A DNA stretch of 64,000 nucleotides from Oligoflexia bacterium (GCA_903895855.1 CAITVN010000238.1:10331-74330); one strand, 5' to 3'. Numbered from the stretch's first letter, positions 15,243 through 23,491 are shown. Notes: generated by a model from the letters alone, not told the origin. Translations and numbers: made by a program.

Positions 15243-15851
15243 ATGAATACCAAAATGAGTCGACCTTGTCTTTCGGTGCTTACTGGGCTTCTCGCTTTTC
15301 AAGTGCTATCCGCTATGGGTGTGGCTCAAGCAGAAGACCAACCGGTTGCTTCTGCAGCCCCGATTGCGTCGCCCACGGTGTCGCAGCCGCCGGTCACCGA
15401 GCGGCTGATTGTTTCAGAGTTTGATGCGAGTTCGAGGTCTAGTTTACGCTACAAGGCCGGTGCCAGTTCTGAGTTTTGGGTCATCGCCGGATACCACAGA
15501 ACCTTAGTTGAAAGTCTTCAAGCATCAGCTCGAATTTTTCTTGATTTCGCAGAGACCATGACCATTTTTGATCTGGTTCTTGGACCCACCTTAAATTTTC
15601 CAGTTTTTGGTGCGGCACATGAGGGGCCTGAAAATTCTTTCTTTCTTTCGTTCGGCGCTGGCATTCGGTGCGAAAAGGCACCAAAAGCAACTCAGTATGG
15701 GTTTTCTTATTCGGTTGAGACCGGTAAGCGGTTCACGGTAACGAAAAGTATCAATTACAAGCCAGAGTTTCGAATTACCGGCAATACAATTTCGACAAAT
15801 GGCCCAGATGTTGATTTTATTCCGCTTCAATTTTCCTTTTTTTGGGAATAG
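15243..15851 (+). CDS. Small outer-membrane beta-barrel protein
   Basis: Signal peptide AQA; beta-strand pattern; aromatic C-terminus LQFSFFWE. Confidence 0.55.
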   Translation: MNTKMSRPCLSVLTGLLAFQVLSAMGVAQAEDQPVASAAPIASPTVSQPPVTERLIVSEFDASSRSSLRYKAGASSEFWVIAGYHRTLVESLQASARIFLDFAETMTIFDLVLGPTLNFPVFGAAHEGPENSFFLSFGAGIRCEKAPKATQYGFSYSVETGKRFTVTKSINYKPEFRITGNTISTNGPDVDFIPLQFSFFWE

Positions 15852-15891
15852 TCTTCTACAAAAGAAGACTCCTTTGGAGGGGAGTAGGACC

Positions 15892-16542
15892 ATGAGTAAA
15901 AATCACACGCATGTGACAGTGTTGGGTATTATTTTCGCGGCAGCAGTGCAATTTATTGGAATTGCTCACGCAGACCAAGTGTCGGCAAAGTTAACAGCCG
16001 AAATCGCAAAAGTGACGACTAATTATCCATCAGGATACAAAGCTAGTATTTCAACGGTGTTTACCTCAGAAGCAAGAAATGTGATGGATAAAATCACGTA
16101 TACTGACAATCAAGGGCAAGAGCTTGAGTACACAATCGAAGAAATTCGAAAAGGTGTCGTATTGTTACATTCGCTAGGTAAAGATCTTGTGCGCTTGAAG
16201 GGCTCAGATTTTCAAGCTGATCGCGGCGGACCCCTTAATCTTGTTTTCTATCGCACATTCTTTGGTGGCGACATTAGACAAGCTGAGTTCGAGTTCGCAC
16301 CTGAAGGTGAAGCGGCTTGGAACGCTTACACACACGATACCGGTAATCGCGATCATTTTGATGGCCTGAACATCACCATCTATAAGAAGATTGGTATTCC
16401 GTCTGGCATTTCAAAAGTTAGCCTCGCAATGGGCGAAACGACTGTGCGAGATTATAACCCGACCGAACTTCCCGCTGCGACCGATTCTTTGCTAGACAGC
16501 ATTTGGACAGGTCCAGGAGCTGTTTGGTTTCCTGGTTTATAA
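15892..16542 (+). CDS. Hypothetical secreted protein
   Basis: GGAG RBS, signal peptide ending AHA. Confidence 0.65.
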   Translation: MSKNHTHVTVLGIIFAAAVQFIGIAHADQVSAKLTAEIAKVTTNYPSGYKASISTVFTSEARNVMDKITYTDNQGQELEYTIEEIRKGVVLLHSLGKDLVRLKGSDFQADRGGPLNLVFYRTFFGGDIRQAEFEFAPEGEAAWNAYTHDTGNRDHFDGLNITIYKKIGIPSGISKVSLAMGETTVRDYNPTELPAATDSLLDSIWTGPGAVWFPGL

Positions 16543-16705: not shown

Positions 16706-17752
16706 TTACTCAAGAAGCTTATTGACGACAGCGAAGTCTCCATCAAAAGTTGAAATTTCTTTAGTCCACAAGAAGTCTGGGCGATCGCTCGTTAGCCAGT
16801 CGCCGCCCACAATGCGGCCTTCACCGTCAAGGTCGAGACTGTAACGATAAATCTTTTCTGAACGTTGAAATTCTTTAGTGCCGATCACTGACTGCCAAAG
16901 TGGTTCGTCGAGCTCGTCGGTATAAATCATTTTGGTCTCGACTACGATTTTCTTGCTAGTGCGACTCACGATTTTCGATTCGAATCCGTAGACGGGATTG
17001 TTCCACACTTCTTTGAAGCGAGAAATGTCTGCAATAAAGGCTTTTTTCTGTATCCCGATGCGATTGGTAATGACCATGTGAAACGCGCCTGCGTTCACGT
17101 CTTCGCAGGATTTGATAAATGAAAGGTGGTTGAATGAGCACCGTCGGCCCATGAAATTAACCGGTGATTCTGAAACCCAAGCATAGTAGTAACTCATGAG
17201 TGCCTTGATGTCAGATGATCCAAAGCTAACTCTGATTCCGTCTGCGCTGACCATGTCTCTAGGAGCTGGCTCGCGGTGATTGATTGAAGCTGGCGACCAC
17301 CCATTACAGATGCCGTTCCATGACTTGTCATGAGGCGAAACTTTGCTCCACACTTTTTTAACCGTCGGATAGTCAAATCGTCCGTTCATGATGTCGAGTT
17401 TTTCAGCCGGTGATAGCATTTCAATCGCTTGTGCCGATGCGGCCTTGGCCTCGTCGCGGGTCATGAGGTGGTACTTAAACCCGGCAGGGTTTTCTGGGTT
17501 ATGCCATCGCCTTGCGATGCCACCTTGAACATTCGGCCAATAGGTGTCTGACCAAGGAATCATGCTTTCGTCGACCGAGCCTGAAAGCGGCAAAGCGTCG
17601 AAGTGGGCCTCTTGGTTGTCACCATCAATAATACTCGGCGAATTGGCTGCGTCCCAGGCATCATCAACTTCAGCACCGAATGCTCTTACAGAAAAGCTAC
17701 CGGTGTACATACACAAGAATGACATACCTACTAAGAATTGATTGAATTTCAT
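16706..17752 (-). CDS. Transglutaminase-elicitor (GP42-like) family secreted protein
   Basis: IPWSDTYWP, LSPAEKLD, WNGICNGW (catalytic Cys), NAGAFH, EVWNNPV, GGDW..RPDFLW. Confidence 0.8.
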   Translation of the reverse strand: MKFNQFLVGMSFLCMYTGSFSVRAFGAEVDDAWDAANSPSIIDGDNQEAHFDALPLSGSVDESMIPWSDTYWPNVQGGIARRWHNPENPAGFKYHLMTRDEAKAASAQAIEMLSPAEKLDIMNGRFDYPTVKKVWSKVSPHDKSWNGICNGWSPASINHREPAPRDMVSADGIRVSFGSSDIKALMSYYYAWVSESPVNFMGRRCSFNHLSFIKSCEDVNAGAFHMVITNRIGIQKKAFIADISRFKEVWNNPVYGFESKIVSRTSKKIVVETKMIYTDELDEPLWQSVIGTKEFQRSEKIYRYSLDLDGEGRIVGGDWLTSDRPDFLWTKEISTFDGDFAVVNKLLE

Positions 17753-18123: not shown

Positions 18124-18702
18124 ATGAAAACGAGTGATGTGTTTGTTGGTTTGTGTTCATTAGTCGTGGCAGCGATGTTGGGTGCCGTGCCTGCGATGGC
18201 AGACCCTGTAGTTGAAAATATAAACGGCGTTTCAGGTCGTTTTGAAAATGCCACGTGTTCTGGCGCCTATTATATGACCATGAGTGCGGCTGAAAGAATG
18301 GAAGACCCGGCCTGTGAATTTAAAAAACCTGACGGCAGTGAAGACCTCGAAGCCAATAGAATTTGCATGATTAATTTTCTGAAGAAAAATGCGAAGCCAG
18401 CTCCCGCAGCGGTGCTGACTGTACAGGCAGTGACTGGCACCAAAGAATTTATGGTTAACATTGTAGAAGACGGTCGGTCTGTCTTATCGTCGCGAAGAAT
18501 CGGCTATCACGGTGATGCCGAAAATGGAATCACCCTGATTTTTGATCGCGTTGGATTTACCGAAGGTGACAAGTATTCAATGGAAATCGGCCTCGTGCGT
18601 GAAGGATTTGCCGATATGGCCAGTGTGCCGGTCAATCGTCGATTTCTTGCTGACCGGTTGTACTTTTTTCCGAATGGCTGCTCACTCAAGTGGGTTGAGT
18701 AG
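18124..18702 (+). CDS. Hypothetical secreted protein
   Basis: GAGG RBS; signal peptide ending AMA. Confidence 0.65.
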   Translation: MKTSDVFVGLCSLVVAAMLGAVPAMADPVVENINGVSGRFENATCSGAYYMTMSAAERMEDPACEFKKPDGSEDLEANRICMINFLKKNAKPAPAAVLTVQAVTGTKEFMVNIVEDGRSVLSSRRIGYHGDAENGITLIFDRVGFTEGDKYSMEIGLVREGFADMASVPVNRRFLADRLYFFPNGCSLKWVE

Positions 18703-18725
18703 TTAGCAGTCGGAAACGACCAGCC

Positions 18726-19256
18726 TCAGGCAGAAAACTCAGAAGTGCTTGTCACTCGGGCAAAGTTTGAAATGATGTGAGTAGCGCTGGTGTGGAGGTT
18801 TGCCTCTGAGAGGCCGCCACCAGACTTACTATTTGATGCATCCTGCACGAAGACCATCTTATTCCCGCGGTGATAACCGTCAATGATCGTCGAGATACAG
18901 CACATGGTAGAACCGTAACCAATGACAACGACTTCATGTTTAGCATCAGCACAGGTTTTCATGGCTTCGGCGAAAGTCTCTGCAGAGTAGCTTGAGTAGT
19001 TGTTTTTGATCACTTTCAGCTCTCGACCTTGTGGTTCGAAACCCGCCACAAAGTTTGACAGTTCGCTTTTGTGGTTAAACAGGTCTCCTTCTTGTAAGTG
19101 CTGAACATGAATGATCTGCCAGTTTTCTGCTCTAGCTTTTTCTAGCACTATTTTCGCGTTGCTCAGGGAGGGGCCAATGGATTCAATTCTGAATGGCCTA
19201 CCTTCGGTTGTATATTCTTTTTGTATATCGATGACCACGAGAGTTTTATTTTTCAT
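18726..19256 (-). CDS. Isochorismatase-family cysteine hydrolase
   Basis: LVVIDIQ (Asp), VIKNNYSSY (Lys), GYGSTMCC (Cys) catalytic triad. Confidence 0.85.
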   Translation of the reverse strand: MKNKTLVVIDIQKEYTTEGRPFRIESIGPSLSNAKIVLEKARAENWQIIHVQHLQEGDLFNHKSELSNFVAGFEPQGRELKVIKNNYSSYSAETFAEAMKTCADAKHEVVVIGYGSTMCCISTIIDGYHRGNKMVFVQDASNSKSGGGLSEANLHTSATHIISNFARVTSTSEFSA

Positions 19257-20478
19257 TTTGTTTAGCTCCTTTTGTTAGAATGTTATTGGTGAGTTCTAAT
19301 AGCCAAGCGAGTCGCTCTGCGTAAGACTGGGTTAACATGAATTCTTTATTGGTGTGCATTCCGCCCCCATAGGGACCTACTCCAACTAGGAGCTGAATGC
19401 CAGTTTCTGACAAATTATTACCGTCGCTAGCATATCCCACACCTCGCCCCGTTATTTCGATGCCGACAGCGGAAGCACTTTGTTTTGCTAGCTCAAATAG
19501 TTCGTAAGTAGATTCAATCGGCATACCTGGAAGTTCGGCAAGAGACTCGATTGTAGATTTGGTGCCTTCGTTAAGAAGGTAATTGAATACAGATGAGTGG
19601 CTCCGAATGGTTTCAATTTGTGCCAGCACTTCGGTTAGGTCGGCAAGTTTTCTATATCGAATATCAATTGTGAGACTCGCTTGATCACAAACGATGTTGG
19701 GTTTCGCTCCGCCCTCAATTGTGCCAACATTTACGGTTAAACCGCGCTCAGGCTCACTCAAGGCTGAGATTTTGGCAATTTTATAACTCGCCTCGAGGCA
19801 GGCGTTGATTCCTTTCTCGGGTTCCAGGCCCGCATGCGCCGCTCGGCCGTAGACATTAAGTTTTAGCCAGCGGACGCCCGAGTGTTCCGTGACGACAGAG
19901 CCATCGCCAAGGCCCGGCTCGAAAACGAGTCCGTATTTGATTTTGACAGCTTGCTGCCGCAGAATTGCACGTGAATGAGTCGATCCAGTCTCCTCGTCAT
20001 CGTTCAATACTATGCGAACTTTCGACCTATGGTCTAGACTTTCGGCTGCCAGTAGGTTCAGCATCAAGATGATTCCCCCTTTCATATCGATGACGCCTGG
20101 GCCAGAAATTGTGGTGCCGATTTTTGTGAAGCTTTGAAATGGATTTTCCTTTTCAAAGACAGTGTCGAGATGGCCCACGAATAGTATCTCTGGTTGGGCC
20201 GTCGGAAAATCGAATGATAGTACCTTATTCTGGTCTCCTGCGTTGATGAGTGAAGTGGTATATCCTAGGGCTTCGAATTCATGAATGAGTATTGATCGAA
20301 CCCTATCCAGGCCCACAGCATTTCCAGTCCCTGAGTTGATGTTAACAATCTCTTCGAGTAGCGACTCCCACTTTGAATTGATAGAATTGGGCAGCGCTTG
20401 TGCTTCTAAAGTTAGTCCAGGCCAGAGACCGATTAACAAAAGTAACCATCGATACCAAGCCATTTTGCGTATCTTCAT
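19246..20478 (-). CDS. Secreted M20 metallopeptidase (glutamate carboxypeptidase-like)
   Basis: Signal peptide; GHLDTV, GVIDMKGG, DEETGS, FEP, AHAG, GGGMH motifs. Confidence 0.9.
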   Translation of the reverse strand: MKIRKMAWYRWLLLLIGLWPGLTLEAQALPNSINSKWESLLEEIVNINSGTGNAVGLDRVRSILIHEFEALGYTTSLINAGDQNKVLSFDFPTAQPEILFVGHLDTVFEKENPFQSFTKIGTTISGPGVIDMKGGIILMLNLLAAESLDHRSKVRIVLNDDEETGSTHSRAILRQQAVKIKYGLVFEPGLGDGSVVTEHSGVRWLKLNVYGRAAHAGLEPEKGINACLEASYKIAKISALSEPERGLTVNVGTIEGGAKPNIVCDQASLTIDIRYRKLADLTEVLAQIETIRSHSSVFNYLLNEGTKSTIESLAELPGMPIESTYELFELAKQSASAVGIEITGRGVGYASDGNNLSETGIQLLVGVGPYGGGMHTNKEFMLTQSYAERLAWLLELTNNILTKGAKQNEK

Positions 20479-21080
20479 AGAGCTCCCATCGGGAATGCTG
20501 AAGGCATTTTGGCGGTTGTATTTTCAGATTCTAGTGGTCCAGGCAGCGACCAGAATCCTTCGGGGCGATTCAGCAGCATTGGACCTAGGTTAACATTTAG
20601 GCCCGCCGAAGAGACTGGAAGACTGGCGTGCATCTCAACATAATCGTGATCAGAGAACTCGAATTCGTCACCGATTCTGTGAAATCCGTATTGCGAGTAG
20701 AAGGGTTCTAGTCTTTGTTGGGCATGTAAGTAGAACTCTCGATACCCCTTTTCTTCGCAAAACTTTAGCAGAAATTGAAGCAGCGCATGGCCATACCCCC
20801 TTCCTCGAAATGCCGATCTTATCGCCAAGCGTTCTAGTTTCGCAAATCCAGAAAAATAGCGAATTCTGGCTGTGAGAACCGGTTCGCCGTTGATCGATCC
20901 TATGATTTGGGTCGAAGTAAAGTCGTTTAGATCAAATTCTTCATCGTAGGGGCAGTTTTGTTCGTGCATGTAAACTATGGCGCGAACGATAAATGCCTTA
21001 GCCAGGTCTTGTTCATGACTCGCTACTTTAATGATCAGGCCCTCAGACTCAGCTCTTTTGAGACACTTATTTCGTGACAT
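20475..21080 (-). CDS. GNAT family acyltransferase (ElaA/YjcF-like)
   Basis: R..VY..EQ.CPY.EEFD, AKLERLAI, FRGRGYG, LHAQ..LEPFYSQYGF; ATG 21080 with GGAG RBS. Confidence 0.85.
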   Translation of the reverse strand: MSRNKCLKRAESEGLIIKVASHEQDLAKAFIVRAIVYMHEQNCPYDEEFDLNDFTSTQIIGSINGEPVLTARIRYFSGFAKLERLAIRSAFRGRGYGHALLQFLLKFCEEKGYREFYLHAQQRLEPFYSQYGFHRIGDEFEFSDHDYVEMHASLPVSSAGLNVNLGPMLLNRPEGFWSLPGPLESENTTAKMPSAFPMGAL

Positions 21081-22326
21081 GTTCAAGTTCTCCATTTCTG
21101 ACGTTGAATGTTGTTTTGTTAATTGTGATCTCGCTTGCACCAGCCCTTAGGTGTCTGAGTATTTCTTCGATAGCGGTGGGAGCCATTCCTTTTTCTCCCT
21201 TTCTGATTGCTGTTGCTGAAATATTGTCAATTCTGCGCACAGGATACGGATAGATGTGGCCACTTTCATCGTAGATGCCTCTAATCCACATACCTCCGAG
21301 GTCACTTCCGTGTATGCCGTGTATTGGCTCATTAGGATGAAGTTTGCGAATGTGTCTAATAATCCCGTAAAATCCTTCAGATTCGTAGATTTTTGGTAAA
21401 GAAAGTACTTTTACCCGGTCAGCCAAGCCGGCCTCTTTCACAGCCAGATCCATCATTTGAACTCGGGTTTTATACTCAAAGAAGCGGTTTCCGGTTGGAA
21501 AATAATTCATATGGACGTCGGCTTTCTTCGTGAGTTCGTAGACGCGCATTCCTGAATCCCACTCTGCAATTTTGATTTCGCCTTTTTTTAGGGCGATTTG
21601 GTGAAGCTTTGGGATGACTGTCGAGTGCAAGTATAAAGTGTTTAGCCCTCGATCATTGATTGCCCGCCTGATGATTTCCAGGTGCGAGTTGTGAAGCGGA
21701 TTGAAGGTTCCAAAAAATATTCCAACCCCGCACTTCGGTGAGAAGTAGGAGCGAAGGTCAGAGGTGATACCAATGCCTAAGAAGATCGATCCAAAGACAA
21801 GACCAAAGAAATAGAAAAGTGTCTTTGACCAACCCAGCCCTAGAGTTGCCAGTGCTGTGATGATGATATTGATTGAGAGGCTAACGAGCACATTTTTGTT
21901 TTTTTCTCCGTACTCTCGATTGGCCAGCCCAATTCCAACATATTGTATTCCTTGGGAGGCGGCCGTGGTCACGATGGCAACAACAATGACTCCACCGACG
22001 GCACTCATGCGTTCGGGCTGAATGACCTGAGAGTATTTGAGGGTCAAAAACACAAATAGATTGAAGGCAAGTTGTACGCAGAATCGAGCCAGTCGGCCAG
22101 GTGTCACCATTGCGGTTTTGAATTGGATCTTCTCTTCGATAAGGTTGCTAAGCTTCGAGTAGTGCGGAATGAAAAAACTGATGAATGAAGTTAAGGCGAT
22201 GAGGGATGGATTGGCCCATGCTTGGTGACCGATTGCGTAAGACAGGTACATGATAAATCCAATGACTAGACCGAATTGAGAGGACTGACTTTGAAGATAG
22301 TTTCTGAGTTTTGGCTCTAATGTCAT
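21067..22326 (-). CDS. Integral membrane protein fused to a HIGH-superfamily (NadD/cytidylyltransferase-like) nucleotidyltransferase
   Basis: About 6 hydrophobic segments, then GIFFGTFNPLHNSH (HxxH), GSD and ISATAIRK motifs; start 22326 or 22401. Confidence 0.75.
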   Translation of the reverse strand: MTLEPKLRNYLQSQSSQFGLVIGFIMYLSYAIGHQAWANPSLIALTSFISFFIPHYSKLSNLIEEKIQFKTAMVTPGRLARFCVQLAFNLFVFLTLKYSQVIQPERMSAVGGVIVVAIVTTAASQGIQYVGIGLANREYGEKNKNVLVSLSINIIITALATLGLGWSKTLFYFFGLVFGSIFLGIGITSDLRSYFSPKCGVGIFFGTFNPLHNSHLEIIRRAINDRGLNTLYLHSTVIPKLHQIALKKGEIKIAEWDSGMRVYELTKKADVHMNYFPTGNRFFEYKTRVQMMDLAVKEAGLADRVKVLSLPKIYESEGFYGIIRHIRKLHPNEPIHGIHGSDLGGMWIRGIYDESGHIYPYPVRRIDNISATAIRKGEKGMAPTAIEEILRHLRAGASEITINKTTFNVRNGELEHVTK

Positions 22327-22634
22327 ATACAATTTAATTTCCTTCTCAGGGGTTTCTCTTCGCAATTCCTGGGCCTGAAAGGGTTCTTTGATGTTCGGCA
22401 TTAGGGGTTGAAGGAGTTGGGTTCGAAGGGTTGGGTCAAACAGTTAACCTGATTGACTATTTTTGGTTAATAATCGCTGGGCCTACTAATTTGCGATTGG
22501 CTGATCCTGCAGGGGCTCTTTGGATGTTGAGTCGTTCATGTTTCATTGTTGGAATTGTGTTTCAAGTTTGAAACCAATAAAATAGTGGGTTGAGTAGTGG
22601 CCCGTGTGTCTTTGCTGGTGCCAGATAAAAGGAA

Positions 22635-23183
22635 CTAACTTATTTTAGACCATTCGTTTGCTAGACCTAATTTCGCGATCCACAAATTCAGATAGGTTAG
22701 GTCGACCTTGGTTTCAGCCAATATGCCCTTAATATCAGTAAGGTGTTTTTCTGACCCACCTTCTTTGAAGTACTCAAGCTTTTTGATAATGATGTCTTCA
22801 GCCGAAGCAATGGCGACGAATAGCTCTGGGAGGATTTCAATTTTTTGTCGTCTTGAAAATTCAGAACTTGAGAACTCGTTGTTCTTCAACAAAACAACGT
22901 CAATTTTAACTCCTGAAGATTGGTGAATCAAATTAAACATGCCCCCTCGTAGAACCTCGTCATTGATGATTTCTCTTGGCGGGCAATAATACTCATCGGT
23001 ATCAAAAAGTTTACAAAAAGGTGAAATTTGCAGGGATTTTATCTGAACAACAAGGTCAATATCATTAGTGAATCGTGGGCGACCATACTGCATTGCCGCT
23101 AGTGATCCCACCAAAAAATATTCGATTCCTGCTTGGCTTAATCGGTTAGTGGTCTCGCGAAGAGCGTCAATGATTCCTTGCAT
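22635..23183 (-). CDS. MenT1-like nucleotidyltransferase toxin (DUF1814/DUF6036-type)
   Basis: LVGSLA, PRFTNDIDLVV, IEILPELFVAIASAEDIIIKKL, KHLTD. Confidence 0.75.
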   Translation of the reverse strand: MQGIIDALRETTNRLSQAGIEYFLVGSLAAMQYGRPRFTNDIDLVVQIKSLQISPFCKLFDTDEYYCPPREIINDEVLRGGMFNLIHQSSGVKIDVVLLKNNEFSSSEFSRRQKIEILPELFVAIASAEDIIIKKLEYFKEGGSEKHLTDIKGILAETKVDLTYLNLWIAKLGLANEWSKIS

Positions 23184-23184
23184 T

Positions 23185-23367
23185 TTAATCTTTCAAGAGC
23201 GCGACGAAATAAGAAACTGTTTTTCTGTGAAGCTCATCTTCGGTAAGATTGGGGAATTTTTTTGAAAATTGGAATTTTTTGCTTAAAAATGCAAATTTAT
23301 ACATAGAGTCGGCCACCTCGAGTGCAAACGGTTTAGGTTTTGGATTTGCTGATTGACTGGCTTTAAT
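23185..23367 (-). CDS. Small MenA1-like antitoxin (60 aa, probable ATT start; not in the ORF track)
   Basis: AGGAGG 5 nt upstream of ATT; open to TAA 1 nt before the toxin ATG; ...ALEVADSMYKFAFLSKKFQFSKKFPNLTEDELHRK... Confidence 0.6.
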   Translation of the reverse strand: MKASQSANPKPKPFALEVADSMYKFAFLSKKFQFSKKFPNLTEDELHRKTVSYFVALLKD

Positions 23368-23407: not shown

Positions 23408-23491
23408 TGGTGCCCGGGACTGGACTCGAACCAGCATGCTTTTGGCGCTCGCCCCTGAAACGAGTGTGTCTACCAATTCCACCACCCGGGC
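23408..23491 (-). tRNA. tRNA-Leu(CAG)
   Basis: GCCCGGG acceptor stem, anticodon arm CTCGT-TTCAGGG-GCGAG, long variable arm, GGTTCGAGTCC, encoded CCA. Confidence 0.95.

Follow-up and report, generated by a model that had tools for sequence, protein, structure and literature searches.

To our knowledge, the characterised HIGH-motif nucleotidyltransferases (NTases) are all soluble enzymes that make cofactors or activated head groups. A few described systems bring such chemistry close to a membrane or to an acyl transfer. In PnuC-NadR, a HIGH-motif NTase works together with a small membrane module. In GlmU, FrbH/FrbF and CitC, a single polypeptide or operon provides both acyl transfer and nucleotidyl transfer for one shared substrate, and CitC does this by pairing a GNAT-like domain with a HIGH-motif NTase. 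In MprF with AcvB or PA0919, a GNAT-fold domain modifies a lipid head group on a membrane flippase, and a periplasmic hydrolase completes the set. Here we describe a four-gene operon in a 64,000-nucleotide (nt) stretch of DNA from Oligoflexia bacterium (GCA_903895855.1, CAITVN010000238.1:10331-74330), and we call that whole stretch the window. The operon encodes an NTase fused to a six-transmembrane (6-TM) module (the TM-NTase), a GNAT, a carboxypeptidase G2 (CPG2)-like M20 hydrolase (M20) and an isochorismatase-fold cysteine hydrolase (ISO). An earlier note on this DNA had proposed a conserved and uncharacterised multi-gene module around a membrane-embedded HIGH-motif NTase, and this was borne out: the operon is a genuine, conserved, uncharacterised system.

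Set against the described systems, the first protein shares with NadD/NMNAT the GxFxPxHxxH and ISxTxxR motifs and a collinear motif order over the whole domain, and its best solved-structure match is the NadD entry 8aih; it differs in being fused to the 6-TM module, in having an insertion of ~35 residues with an invariant NYFPTG, and in scoring below the NadD cut-offs. Unlike in PnuC-NadR, the membrane module and the NTase are here physically fused, the module matches no Pfam family (the PnuC family included), and an obligatory GNAT takes the kinase's place. The only lead towards a sequence relationship with GlmU, FrbH/FrbF or CitC is that 14% of one Atlas cluster carries PF08218; relative to CitC the domain order is reversed, and the protein is membrane-embedded with accompanying hydrolases. 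The operon may also be likened to MprF with AcvB/PA0919: one operon in each case would bring together a GNAT-fold transferase at the cytoplasmic face, a module in the membrane and a hydrolase that is exported. We found no sequence similarity between them, MprF lacks an NTase, and the two differ in GNAT type and TM module.

A six-helix membrane module always partnered with a tailed GNAT

A word-indexed search in which 8000 candidates were scored returned 441 homologues of the TM-NTase at E ≤ 0.001. The best 120 of these 441 are 47–61% identical to the query over 71–96% of its length, and the family is found in at least seven phyla at 42–61% identity. An exhaustive phmmer search of 1.84 billion representatives yielded only 147 proteins, mostly full-length or fragmentary family members, so the family is compact and isolated. 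Its members carry public names such as "hypothetical protein", "GNAT family N-acetyltransferase", "cytidyltransferase-like" and "DUF2917 domain-containing"; an automatic JGI label, "nicotinic acid mononucleotide adenylyltransferase", is not supported by the NadD tests given below. Searches of the open-access literature for DUF2917, the enzyme combination, accession and locus names, and membrane-bound NadD fusions found no publication on the family.

Gene neighbourhoods were compared in loci found by an alignment-based pattern scan with one genome per species, which gave 139 encoding loci, of which the best 80 were kept; partners were sought in these by tblastn with the window proteins. Reyranella-like alphaproteobacteria, which cannot be counted as independent of one another, predominate among the 80 loci. 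These loci span Myxococcota, alpha-, beta- and gamma-proteobacteria, Bacillota (Marininema, Megamonas) and Actinomycetota (Salinispora and a Micrococcales metagenome-assembled genome (MAG)), and they further include Spirochaetota, a Fusobacteriaceae MAG and an acidobacterial MAG. A GNAT gene lies beside the NTase gene in every one of the 80, directly downstream on the same strand in 79 and upstream in the remaining one. Twelve loci carry GNAT, M20 and ISO, with the order NTase-GNAT-M20-ISO preserved in Myxococcota, beta- and gamma-proteobacteria, Bacillota, a Spirochaetes MAG and a Proteobacteria MAG. One has GNAT and M20 before the contig ends, 11 have GNAT and ISO, 45 have two GNATs (mostly Reyranella-like and non-independent), and 11 have a GNAT only, three of them cut short. 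M20 is absent from 67 of the 80 loci and ISO from 57, and in all 12 loci that could be assessed M20 comes together with ISO. The earlier note had proposed to check co-occurrence across taxa and had named homologues without the partners as a refutation; the GNAT, missing from no locus, stands up to this check, and M20 and ISO, missing from many, do not: these two enzymes are accessories and not obligatory partners.

The phmmer list also holds complete proteins of ~190–260 amino acids (aa) that match only query residues ~30–220 and end just after helix 6. These stand-alone TM proteins keep the conserved Y, GR..R..Q...N, SQG.QY and G.G....N and have no Pfam or NCBIfam match. A metagenome scan for the stand-alone module with five sequences returned 15 loci. 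In 13 of these, a tailed GNAT that is 41–47% identical to the window's lies immediately downstream, and the contigs of the other two stop at the end of the TM gene, before any downstream gene. Because the TM module without the NTase still keeps the same GNAT, the core of the system is the 6-TM module with its tailed GNAT; one large branch has gained the NTase domain, and ISO and M20 are further layers. The earlier note had placed the NTase at the centre of the set, and this view does not hold, since the 6-TM module occurs without the NTase and retains the GNAT. The tailed, ElaA-like GNAT is thus a constant partner of a new six-helix membrane module.

Gene fusions connect the same components. 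NTase-GNAT fusions of 592–660 aa make up seven clusters (P0012, P0016, P0017, P0020, P0021, P0072 and P0075) from Bacillus cereus, Marininema, Mechercharimyces and metagenomes, and in Bacillota the TM module, NTase and GNAT are one polypeptide. GNAT and ISO are fused in L033 (353 aa), and in P0296 an ISO of the same subfamily is attached to a tailed GNAT. These fusions support a functional link between NTase, GNAT and ISO. The JGI protein P0281 is a run-together call that combines the ISO subfamily of the window with a stand-alone TM module. No NTase fusion longer than 777 aa was found. An apparent NTase-M20 fusion, P0112 (678 aa), was rejected; it lacks the NTase end, the whole GNAT and the M20 start, and is probably a deletion or an assembly artefact.

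Further architectures were seen. Archangium and related metagenome sequences (P0002-P0007; L001 5770-7290) have a TM-NTase with an N-terminal DUF2917 domain (PF11142, E 1.3e-13). P0128 (648 aa) carries the TM-NTase with a different C-terminal domain, which has a faint match to FeeM, an N-acyl amino acid synthase (E 0.02), and no tie to the GNAT profile (probability 0.6%); long-chain acylation may occur in some members. Lastly, more than 100 metagenomic clusters of ~360–450 aa (for example P0366, P0284 and P0308) join a soluble N-terminal domain of ~200 aa to a tailed GNAT, which makes a third architecture for this GNAT subfamily; the N-terminal domain of the 417-aa tailed-GNAT proteins was not found in the five cassette-carrying genomes checked.

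The membrane module and the enzymes of the operon

Residues of the first protein are numbered on the 444-aa open reading frame (ORF); the protein has 419 aa if counted from the ATG at 22326. The earlier note had described about six TM segments in it, and hydropathy agrees, with five strongly hydrophobic segments between residues 40 and 213 and a weaker one at 65-82. The topology that we infer from this is six TM helices with both ends in the cytoplasm (N-in/C-in). In a 25-sequence alignment, both halves of the protein are densely invariant along their length. The conserved polar residues of the membrane half are Y55, R103/R106, Q110, N114, T145/T146, S149, Q150, G151, Q153, Y154, R162, N170, N178, D215 and R217 (Y55, R106, N114 and Q153 were transferred from the stand-alone proteins to window numbering by our own mapping), and on our topology they would sit in cytoplasmic loops or in the cytoplasmic halves of helices. 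The 6-TM module matches no Pfam or NCBIfam family, in the stand-alone homologues scanned likewise. In the Atlas model of the whole protein, which is of modest confidence (predicted template-modelling score (pTM) 0.53), the membrane part has no named structural look-alike above a TM-score of 0.5 by both measures, and no internal repeat was detected in comparisons of the module's halves (probability 0.3-2.7%) or hairpins (≤8%).

The motifs GTFNPLHNSH, GSD and ISATAIR, which the earlier note had pointed out, lie at residues 231-240, 365-367 and 394-400. Invariant or nearly so in the NTase half are G231, T232, F233, N234, P235, H237 and H240, the NYFPTG of the insertion, GSD..GG and SAT.IR; within these, H237, H240, S395 and A398 are invariant, and T397, I399 and R400 are kept in at least 90% of the 25-sequence alignment. 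Most residues of the HIGH and ISxTxxR motifs are invariant across the family alignments, and by its residues the domain is predicted to be catalytically intact. PF01467 matches it at 23.2 bits against a gathering threshold of 21, over profile positions 1-23 of 133 only, which is the HIGH motif. By family profile, the nearest solved proteins are NadD (8aih, E 1e-5; 1kam, E 8e-4). A second stretch of alignment to the NadD structures is collinear but not significant alone, and it implies the ~35-residue insertion after strand 2, in line with the long insert that the earlier note had described there. The structural neighbours of the NTase half in the ESM Atlas are NadD-like, and its weak NCBIfam matches are all NadD or CoaD.

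None of the four operon proteins reaches any NCBIfam equivalog cut-off, and the TM-NTase falls far below those of NadD (TIGR00482, 23.6 against 112.45 bits; PRK07152, 26.6 against 315 bits). The earlier note had raised the possibility that the protein is the cell's only NadD. The genome contains two other full-length NadD-like genes (C76 and C130), whose matches to TIGR00482 cover 1-194 (83 bits) and 1-174 (80 bits), both below the cut-off. Because of the low scores, the membrane fusion, the insertion and these two genes, the TM-NTase is not the housekeeping NadD of the cell.

The GNAT matches PF13673 and PF00583 above their gathering thresholds (56.2 and 45.9 bits), and its closest PDB entries are 5jq4 (E 1e-17), 1q2y and 5z6n. 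The ElaA/YjcF/SACOL1063 group thus provides its best structural matches, and the "EQ.CPY..E.D..D" region is common to both; it differs from this group in an extra conserved C-terminal tail, in always having a membrane partner, and in its score against the ElaA equivalog NF007644 (40.5 bits, below the cut-off of 171). The tail signature, P-(M/L)-x-(L/I)-x-R-P-E-G-x-W-x-x-P-G-x-L-E, is common to the NTase-type and stand-alone-TM loci and is kept also in the fused NTase-GNAT proteins of Bacillota. An invariant block, R33, V36, C43, E47 E48 F49 D50 and N52 D53, is likewise common to both locus types. At the site of the acyl-CoA pyrophosphate-binding motif, which in GNATs is R/Q-x-x-G-x-G/A, the window protein has RGRGYG. 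There are weak matches to ArsN2, streptothricin and AAC(3) acetyltransferase models. In PADLOC-DB 2.0, the GNAT has a partial, marginal match to PDC-M11A (E 9.4e-4, 16 bits, residues 100-158 against 227-288 of 486) that looks like generic GNAT-fold similarity, and the TM-NTase, M20, ISO and a neighbouring DUF6036-like protein have no match. For the nearest solved GNAT, SACOL1063, acetylation of threonine and of a few further amino acids is reported (PMC10267138), and this is the only biochemical hint at the substrate; the related N-terminal GNAT domain of MadA has no known function (PMC8666670).

M20 has both the catalytic and the dimerisation domain (PF01546 and PF07687, 67.6 and 76.5 bits). 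Its closest structure is CPG2, an M20A enzyme (1cg2, E 1e-29 over 250 residues). All 14 sequences compared keep H103, D105, D131, E162, E163, E187 and H375; the first four motifs align with the metal-ligand motifs of CPG2. M20 differs from CPG2 in lying below every NCBIfam equivalog cut-off; of the glutamate carboxypeptidase/PRK07338 hydrolase models, PRK07338 gives 258.8 against 357 bits and the other 181.8 against 349 bits. The earlier note took M20 to be secreted, and a signal-peptide-like N-terminus is present in the window protein; a hydrophobic N-terminal leader is present in 13 of 13 homologues, that of the Gram-positive Marininema included, so M20 is predicted to act outside the cell, as the exported CPG2 does.

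ISO matches PF00857 at 71.4 bits against a threshold of 27 and shares with RutB, BiuH, PncA and SttH the D/E-K-C triad. Of 24 sequences, all have K84 and 23 have C119, and at position 10 there is a D in 20 and an E in four. It differs from RutB, BiuH and PncA in that its only NCBIfam matches are RutB and BiuH and are weak (33.6 bits against a cut-off of 378), no nicotinamidase model is among its NCBIfam matches at E ≤ 0.01, and its nearest PDB entries, 4h17 and 3oqp, are structures without a known function. From their conserved residues, both M20 and ISO appear to be active. ISO is predicted to be cytoplasmic, and it is sometimes fused to the GNAT.

Genomic setting of the operon

All four ORFs are on the minus strand and follow one another head to tail within 18726-22401 (Table 1). 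The earlier note had described four genes linked by overlaps, and we located the three overlaps directly in the sequence: the NTase stop codon TAA (21067-21069) lies within the GNAT gene, which starts at the ATG at 21080 (14-nt overlap); the GNAT/M20 junction is ATGA (20475-20478); and the M20 stop codon (19246-19248) overlaps the ISO gene, whose ATG is at 19256, by 11 nt. In our reading, the starts of GNAT, M20 and ISO are each preceded by a GGAG-like ribosome-binding site. The first ORF is open from 22401. Because alignment to homologues begins only at about residue 31 and AAGGA precedes the ATG at 22326, that ATG, at which the earlier note had let the operon end, is the likelier start.

Table 1. 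Positions of the operon, its parts and neighbouring features in the window
Feature	Position	Strand	Basis or remark
15-nt direct repeat, upstream copy (AGTGGGTTGAGTAGT)	22584..22598	+	unique pair in the genome
TM + NadD-like NTase gene, 419 aa from ATG	21067..22326	-	ORF open to 22401; 25-sequence alignment
6-TM module, residues 26-222	21736..22326	-	hydropathy, invariant columns
NadD-like HIGH-motif NTase domain, residues 223-444	21070..21735	-	Pfam, NCBIfam, NadD structures
GTFNPLHNSH motif	21682-21711	-	sequence
ISATAIR motif	21202-21222	-	sequence
ElaA/YjcF/SACOL1063-like GNAT, 201 aa	20475..21080	-	PF13673, PF00583, PDB 5jq4
GNAT C-terminal tail, P-M/L-x-L/I-x-R-P-E-G...P-G-x-L-E	20478..20615	-	conserved across locus types
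CPG2-like M20 di-zinc hydrolase, predicted exported, 410 aa	19246..20478	-	PF01546, PF07687, 1cg2
M20 signal-peptide-like N-terminus	~20395-20478	-	cleavage after AQA by our reading
Isochorismatase-fold cysteine hydrolase (ISO), 176 aa	18726..19256	-	PF00857; D10-K84-C119 triad
15-nt direct repeat, downstream copy (AGTGGGTTGAGTAGT)	18689..18703	+	23 nt past ISO stop codon
tRNA-Leu(CAG)	23408-23491	-	next to the 182-aa gene and the 43-aa ORF
182-aa DUF6036/DUF2204/AbiEii-like gene	22635-23183	-	borderline Pfam scores
43-aa ORF	23185-23316	-	ends 1 nt before the 182-aa gene

A perfect 15-nt direct repeat brackets the four-gene operon exactly, and its two occurrences in the 5.37-Mb genome are both here; none of 100 shuffles of the window produced a match. 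The upstream copy is ~260 nt from the likely NTase start (183 nt from the longest ORF). There is no recombinase gene between the copies, and the idea that the repeat is a piece of the 3′ end of the transfer RNA (tRNA) gene tRNA-Leu was rejected, as it is not part of it. The repeat is probably the insertion scar of a 3.9-kb block. No TM-NTase orthologue was found in any of 60 relatives from the window's family or order, where five weak matches cover the HIGH motif only, and the TM module was found in none of 300 other genomes of the order of genome G061. The tRNA-Leu loci of the relatives share none of the window's neighbouring genes, and no empty site was found among them. By tblastn, no copies were found in 72,556 plasmid records or 50,697 phage records. 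The cassette is horizontally acquired and moves as a block.

Of the 80 loci, 62 have a LysR-family gene within 6 kb, typically divergent and just upstream; Pfam confirmed it in L002, L005, L018 and L055, and in five stand-alone-type loci it is convergent and downstream. The presence of LysR genes beside most homologous loci suggests induction by a small molecule. A scan for promoters and terminators gave nothing above the shuffle expectation. In the upstream regions of the window operon and of 11 loci, Rfam reported tRNAs only and no riboswitch. The sequencing runs listed are four DNA runs of one lake-water study, with no RNA run among them.

The earlier note had also described a toxin-antitoxin (TA) pair at the 3′ end of a tRNA gene. 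The tRNA-Leu(CAG) is present, but the TA pair is weak and is not established: the 182-aa neighbour gives borderline Pfam scores (AbiEii, 19.9 against a threshold of 22.5 bits; DUF6036, 23.4 against 23.6; DUF2204, 21.2 against 20.3), and the 43-aa ORF beside it has no family match. On the other side of the operon are a 348-aa secreted-looking protein (16706-17752, minus strand) that matches TGase_elicitor (PF16683, E 1.3e-29) and two ORFs (15243-16542 and 18124-18702) with signal-like leaders at their starts and no family match.

Other genes recur near homologous cassettes. A DUF6671 protein lies next to the cassette, upstream or downstream of it, in seven beta- and gamma-proteobacterial loci (L002 9810-10589, L005 3597-4466, L004, L006, L007, L009 and L010). 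The NTase-GNAT-GNAT operons of L055 and other Reyranella-like loci face a convergent set of genes for an oligopeptide-type ABC transporter (OppB/OppC permeases and a family-5 binding protein; 8468-11963 in L055), and in a sub-group of the Reyranella-like loci gamma-glutamyltranspeptidase and DUF1028 genes are also near; the transporter neighbourhood may be lineage synteny only.

Possible functions of the operon

The reading that we favour, tentatively and without yet calling it probable, is that the operon is an outward-directed machine that tailors a small molecule or lipid head group at the membrane face and then exposes it. A substrate with an amine and a phosphoryl (or carboxyl) group would be held in a polar, cytoplasm-facing cavity of the TM module, where the docked GNAT would N-acylate it from acyl-CoA. 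In the branch that carries it, the fused NTase would then move adenosine or cytidine monophosphate (AMP or CMP) from a nucleoside triphosphate onto the substrate. The product would leave or become exposed at the outer face, where the secreted M20 would cleave the amide outside the cell to deprotect, trim or recycle it; ISO would cleave an amide in the cytoplasm. The two-step acyl and nucleotidyl logic resembles that of GlmU or FrbH/FrbF, and the logic of protection, export and deprotection resembles the MprF/AcvB arrangement. In favour of this reading are the constant GNAT partnership and the fusions, the conserved catalytic residues, the predicted compartments, the layered gene content, the LysR neighbours and the mobility of the cassette. 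The earlier note had inferred synthesis and turnover of an acylated or nucleotidylated metabolite, lipid or signal at the membrane, which may still serve as a fair description.

A more specific version, which we consider unlikely in all its parts together, is a vectorial tailoring in which the 6-TM protein would hand its substrate to the docked GNAT and the fused adenylyl- or cytidylyltransferase, so that passage through or residence in the membrane is coupled to acylation and nucleotidylation. The product would be an N-acyl metabolite or lipid head group linked to a nucleoside monophosphate, and M20 and ISO would set its level. As a variant of this, the system might activate, at the membrane and independently of tRNA, an amino acid or an aminophosph(on)ate.

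Several points weigh against outward tailoring. The role of the TM module as a conduit or substrate holder is pure inference, since the module resembles no transporter or flippase and has no internal repeat. The RxxGxG/A motif is degenerate in several GNATs of the stand-alone-type and alphaproteobacterial loci, and some of the GNAT partners may not use acyl-CoA. The LysR genes are only 28-32% identical between loci and so may be convergent neighbours and not one orthologous regulator, and the window operon has no LysR gene beside it. The preponderance of non-independent Reyranella-like loci in the set of 80 also has to be counted here. Finally, a resistance or detoxification cassette would account no less well for the variable, additive gene content, and uptake and catabolism no less well for the exported hydrolase and the LysR genes.

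Uptake and trapping is the alternative that survives best, although we regard it too as doubtful. M20 would trim an extracellular amide conjugate, the 6-TM protein would act as a facilitator, adenylylation and acetylation would trap the substrate, and ISO would deamidate it, much as PnuC/NadR serve the rebuilding of an adenylylated cofactor. The predicted extracytoplasmic location of M20 in all 13 homologues and its likeness to CPG2, an enzyme that removes glutamate, are in keeping with this, as is its constant association with ISO in the 12 assessable loci, which is what peripheral steps upstream of a core pathway would look like. LysR neighbours are typical of substrate-induced operons, an NTase fused to a small membrane module fits metabolic trapping, and the NTase is collinear with NadD, whose relatives make adenylylated cofactors. 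However, the universal step is GNAT acylation, which is unusual for assimilation, and systems consisting of the TM module and GNAT only would make poor importers. The module shows no transporter similarity or inverted repeat, and no kinase, phosphoribosyltransferase or further catabolic gene is conserved in the flanks scanned.

Next in order, and unlikely in our judgement, is multi-layer resistance or detoxification, in which each enzyme would independently inactivate one antimetabolite or antibiotic and the TM module would export the product or position the enzymes at the entry point. An additive and variable composition, a patchy horizontal distribution among soil and freshwater bacteria, the insertion scar at the window operon and the nearby LysR sensors are all consistent with such a cassette, and so are the weak GNAT matches to ArsN2, streptothricin and AAC(3) acetyltransferase models and the membership of the antibiotic hydrolase SttH in the isochorismatase fold. 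Translational coupling, the fixed gene order and the NTase-GNAT and GNAT-ISO fusions point instead to sequential action on one molecule; none of the plasmid and phage records searched carries a copy, and we know of no HIGH-motif NTase that inactivates drugs.

A role in salvage for nicotinamide adenine dinucleotide (NAD), in which membrane uptake of a pyridine precursor would be followed by a PncA-like amidase and NadD-like adenylylation, is very unlikely. It draws on NadD being the closest solved family, on weak NCBIfam matches that are all NadD or CoaD, on the NadD-like structural neighbours in the Atlas, and on nicotinamidase belonging to the same superfamily as ISO. The NTase, however, scores far under the NadD cut-offs and has a family-specific insertion, ISO matches no nicotinamidase model, and pncB, nadE, nadR and pnuC are absent from the flanking genes scanned. 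The TM and GNAT core exists without the NTase, the genome has its two other NadD-like genes, and the obligatory GNAT and exported M20 would have no role. The earlier note had argued against plain nicotinamide salvage, and the missing nicotinamidase match, the scanned flanks and the dispensability of the NTase to the core all support it in this.

An anti-phage defence or abortive-infection island, the other alternative raised in the earlier note, is the least credible of all. In its favour are the horizontal acquisition of the operon and its position, with the tRNA gene and the AbiEii/DUF6036-like NTase gene on one side and the remaining chromosome on the other. Against it, four of the five proteins scanned have no PADLOC match and the GNAT has the marginal partial one alone, no phage or plasmid copies were found, and known defence systems do not resemble a set with an exported hydrolase and LysR regulators.

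The finding matters in the first place for the membrane module. A HIGH-motif NTase welded to a new membrane module, with the GNAT as a constant partner, implies a membrane-linked reaction that has not been described, and the 6-TM module merits a family definition of its own. The system is compact, with two to four genes, and carries its own Rosetta-stone fusions; its carriers include Pseudomonas, Jeongeupia, Marininema, Salinispora and Archangium, all of them culturable, which puts the question within direct experimental reach. The main interest of the system thus lies in the new membrane module and its obligatory partnership with the GNAT, more than in the NAD-like flavour that was first noticed.

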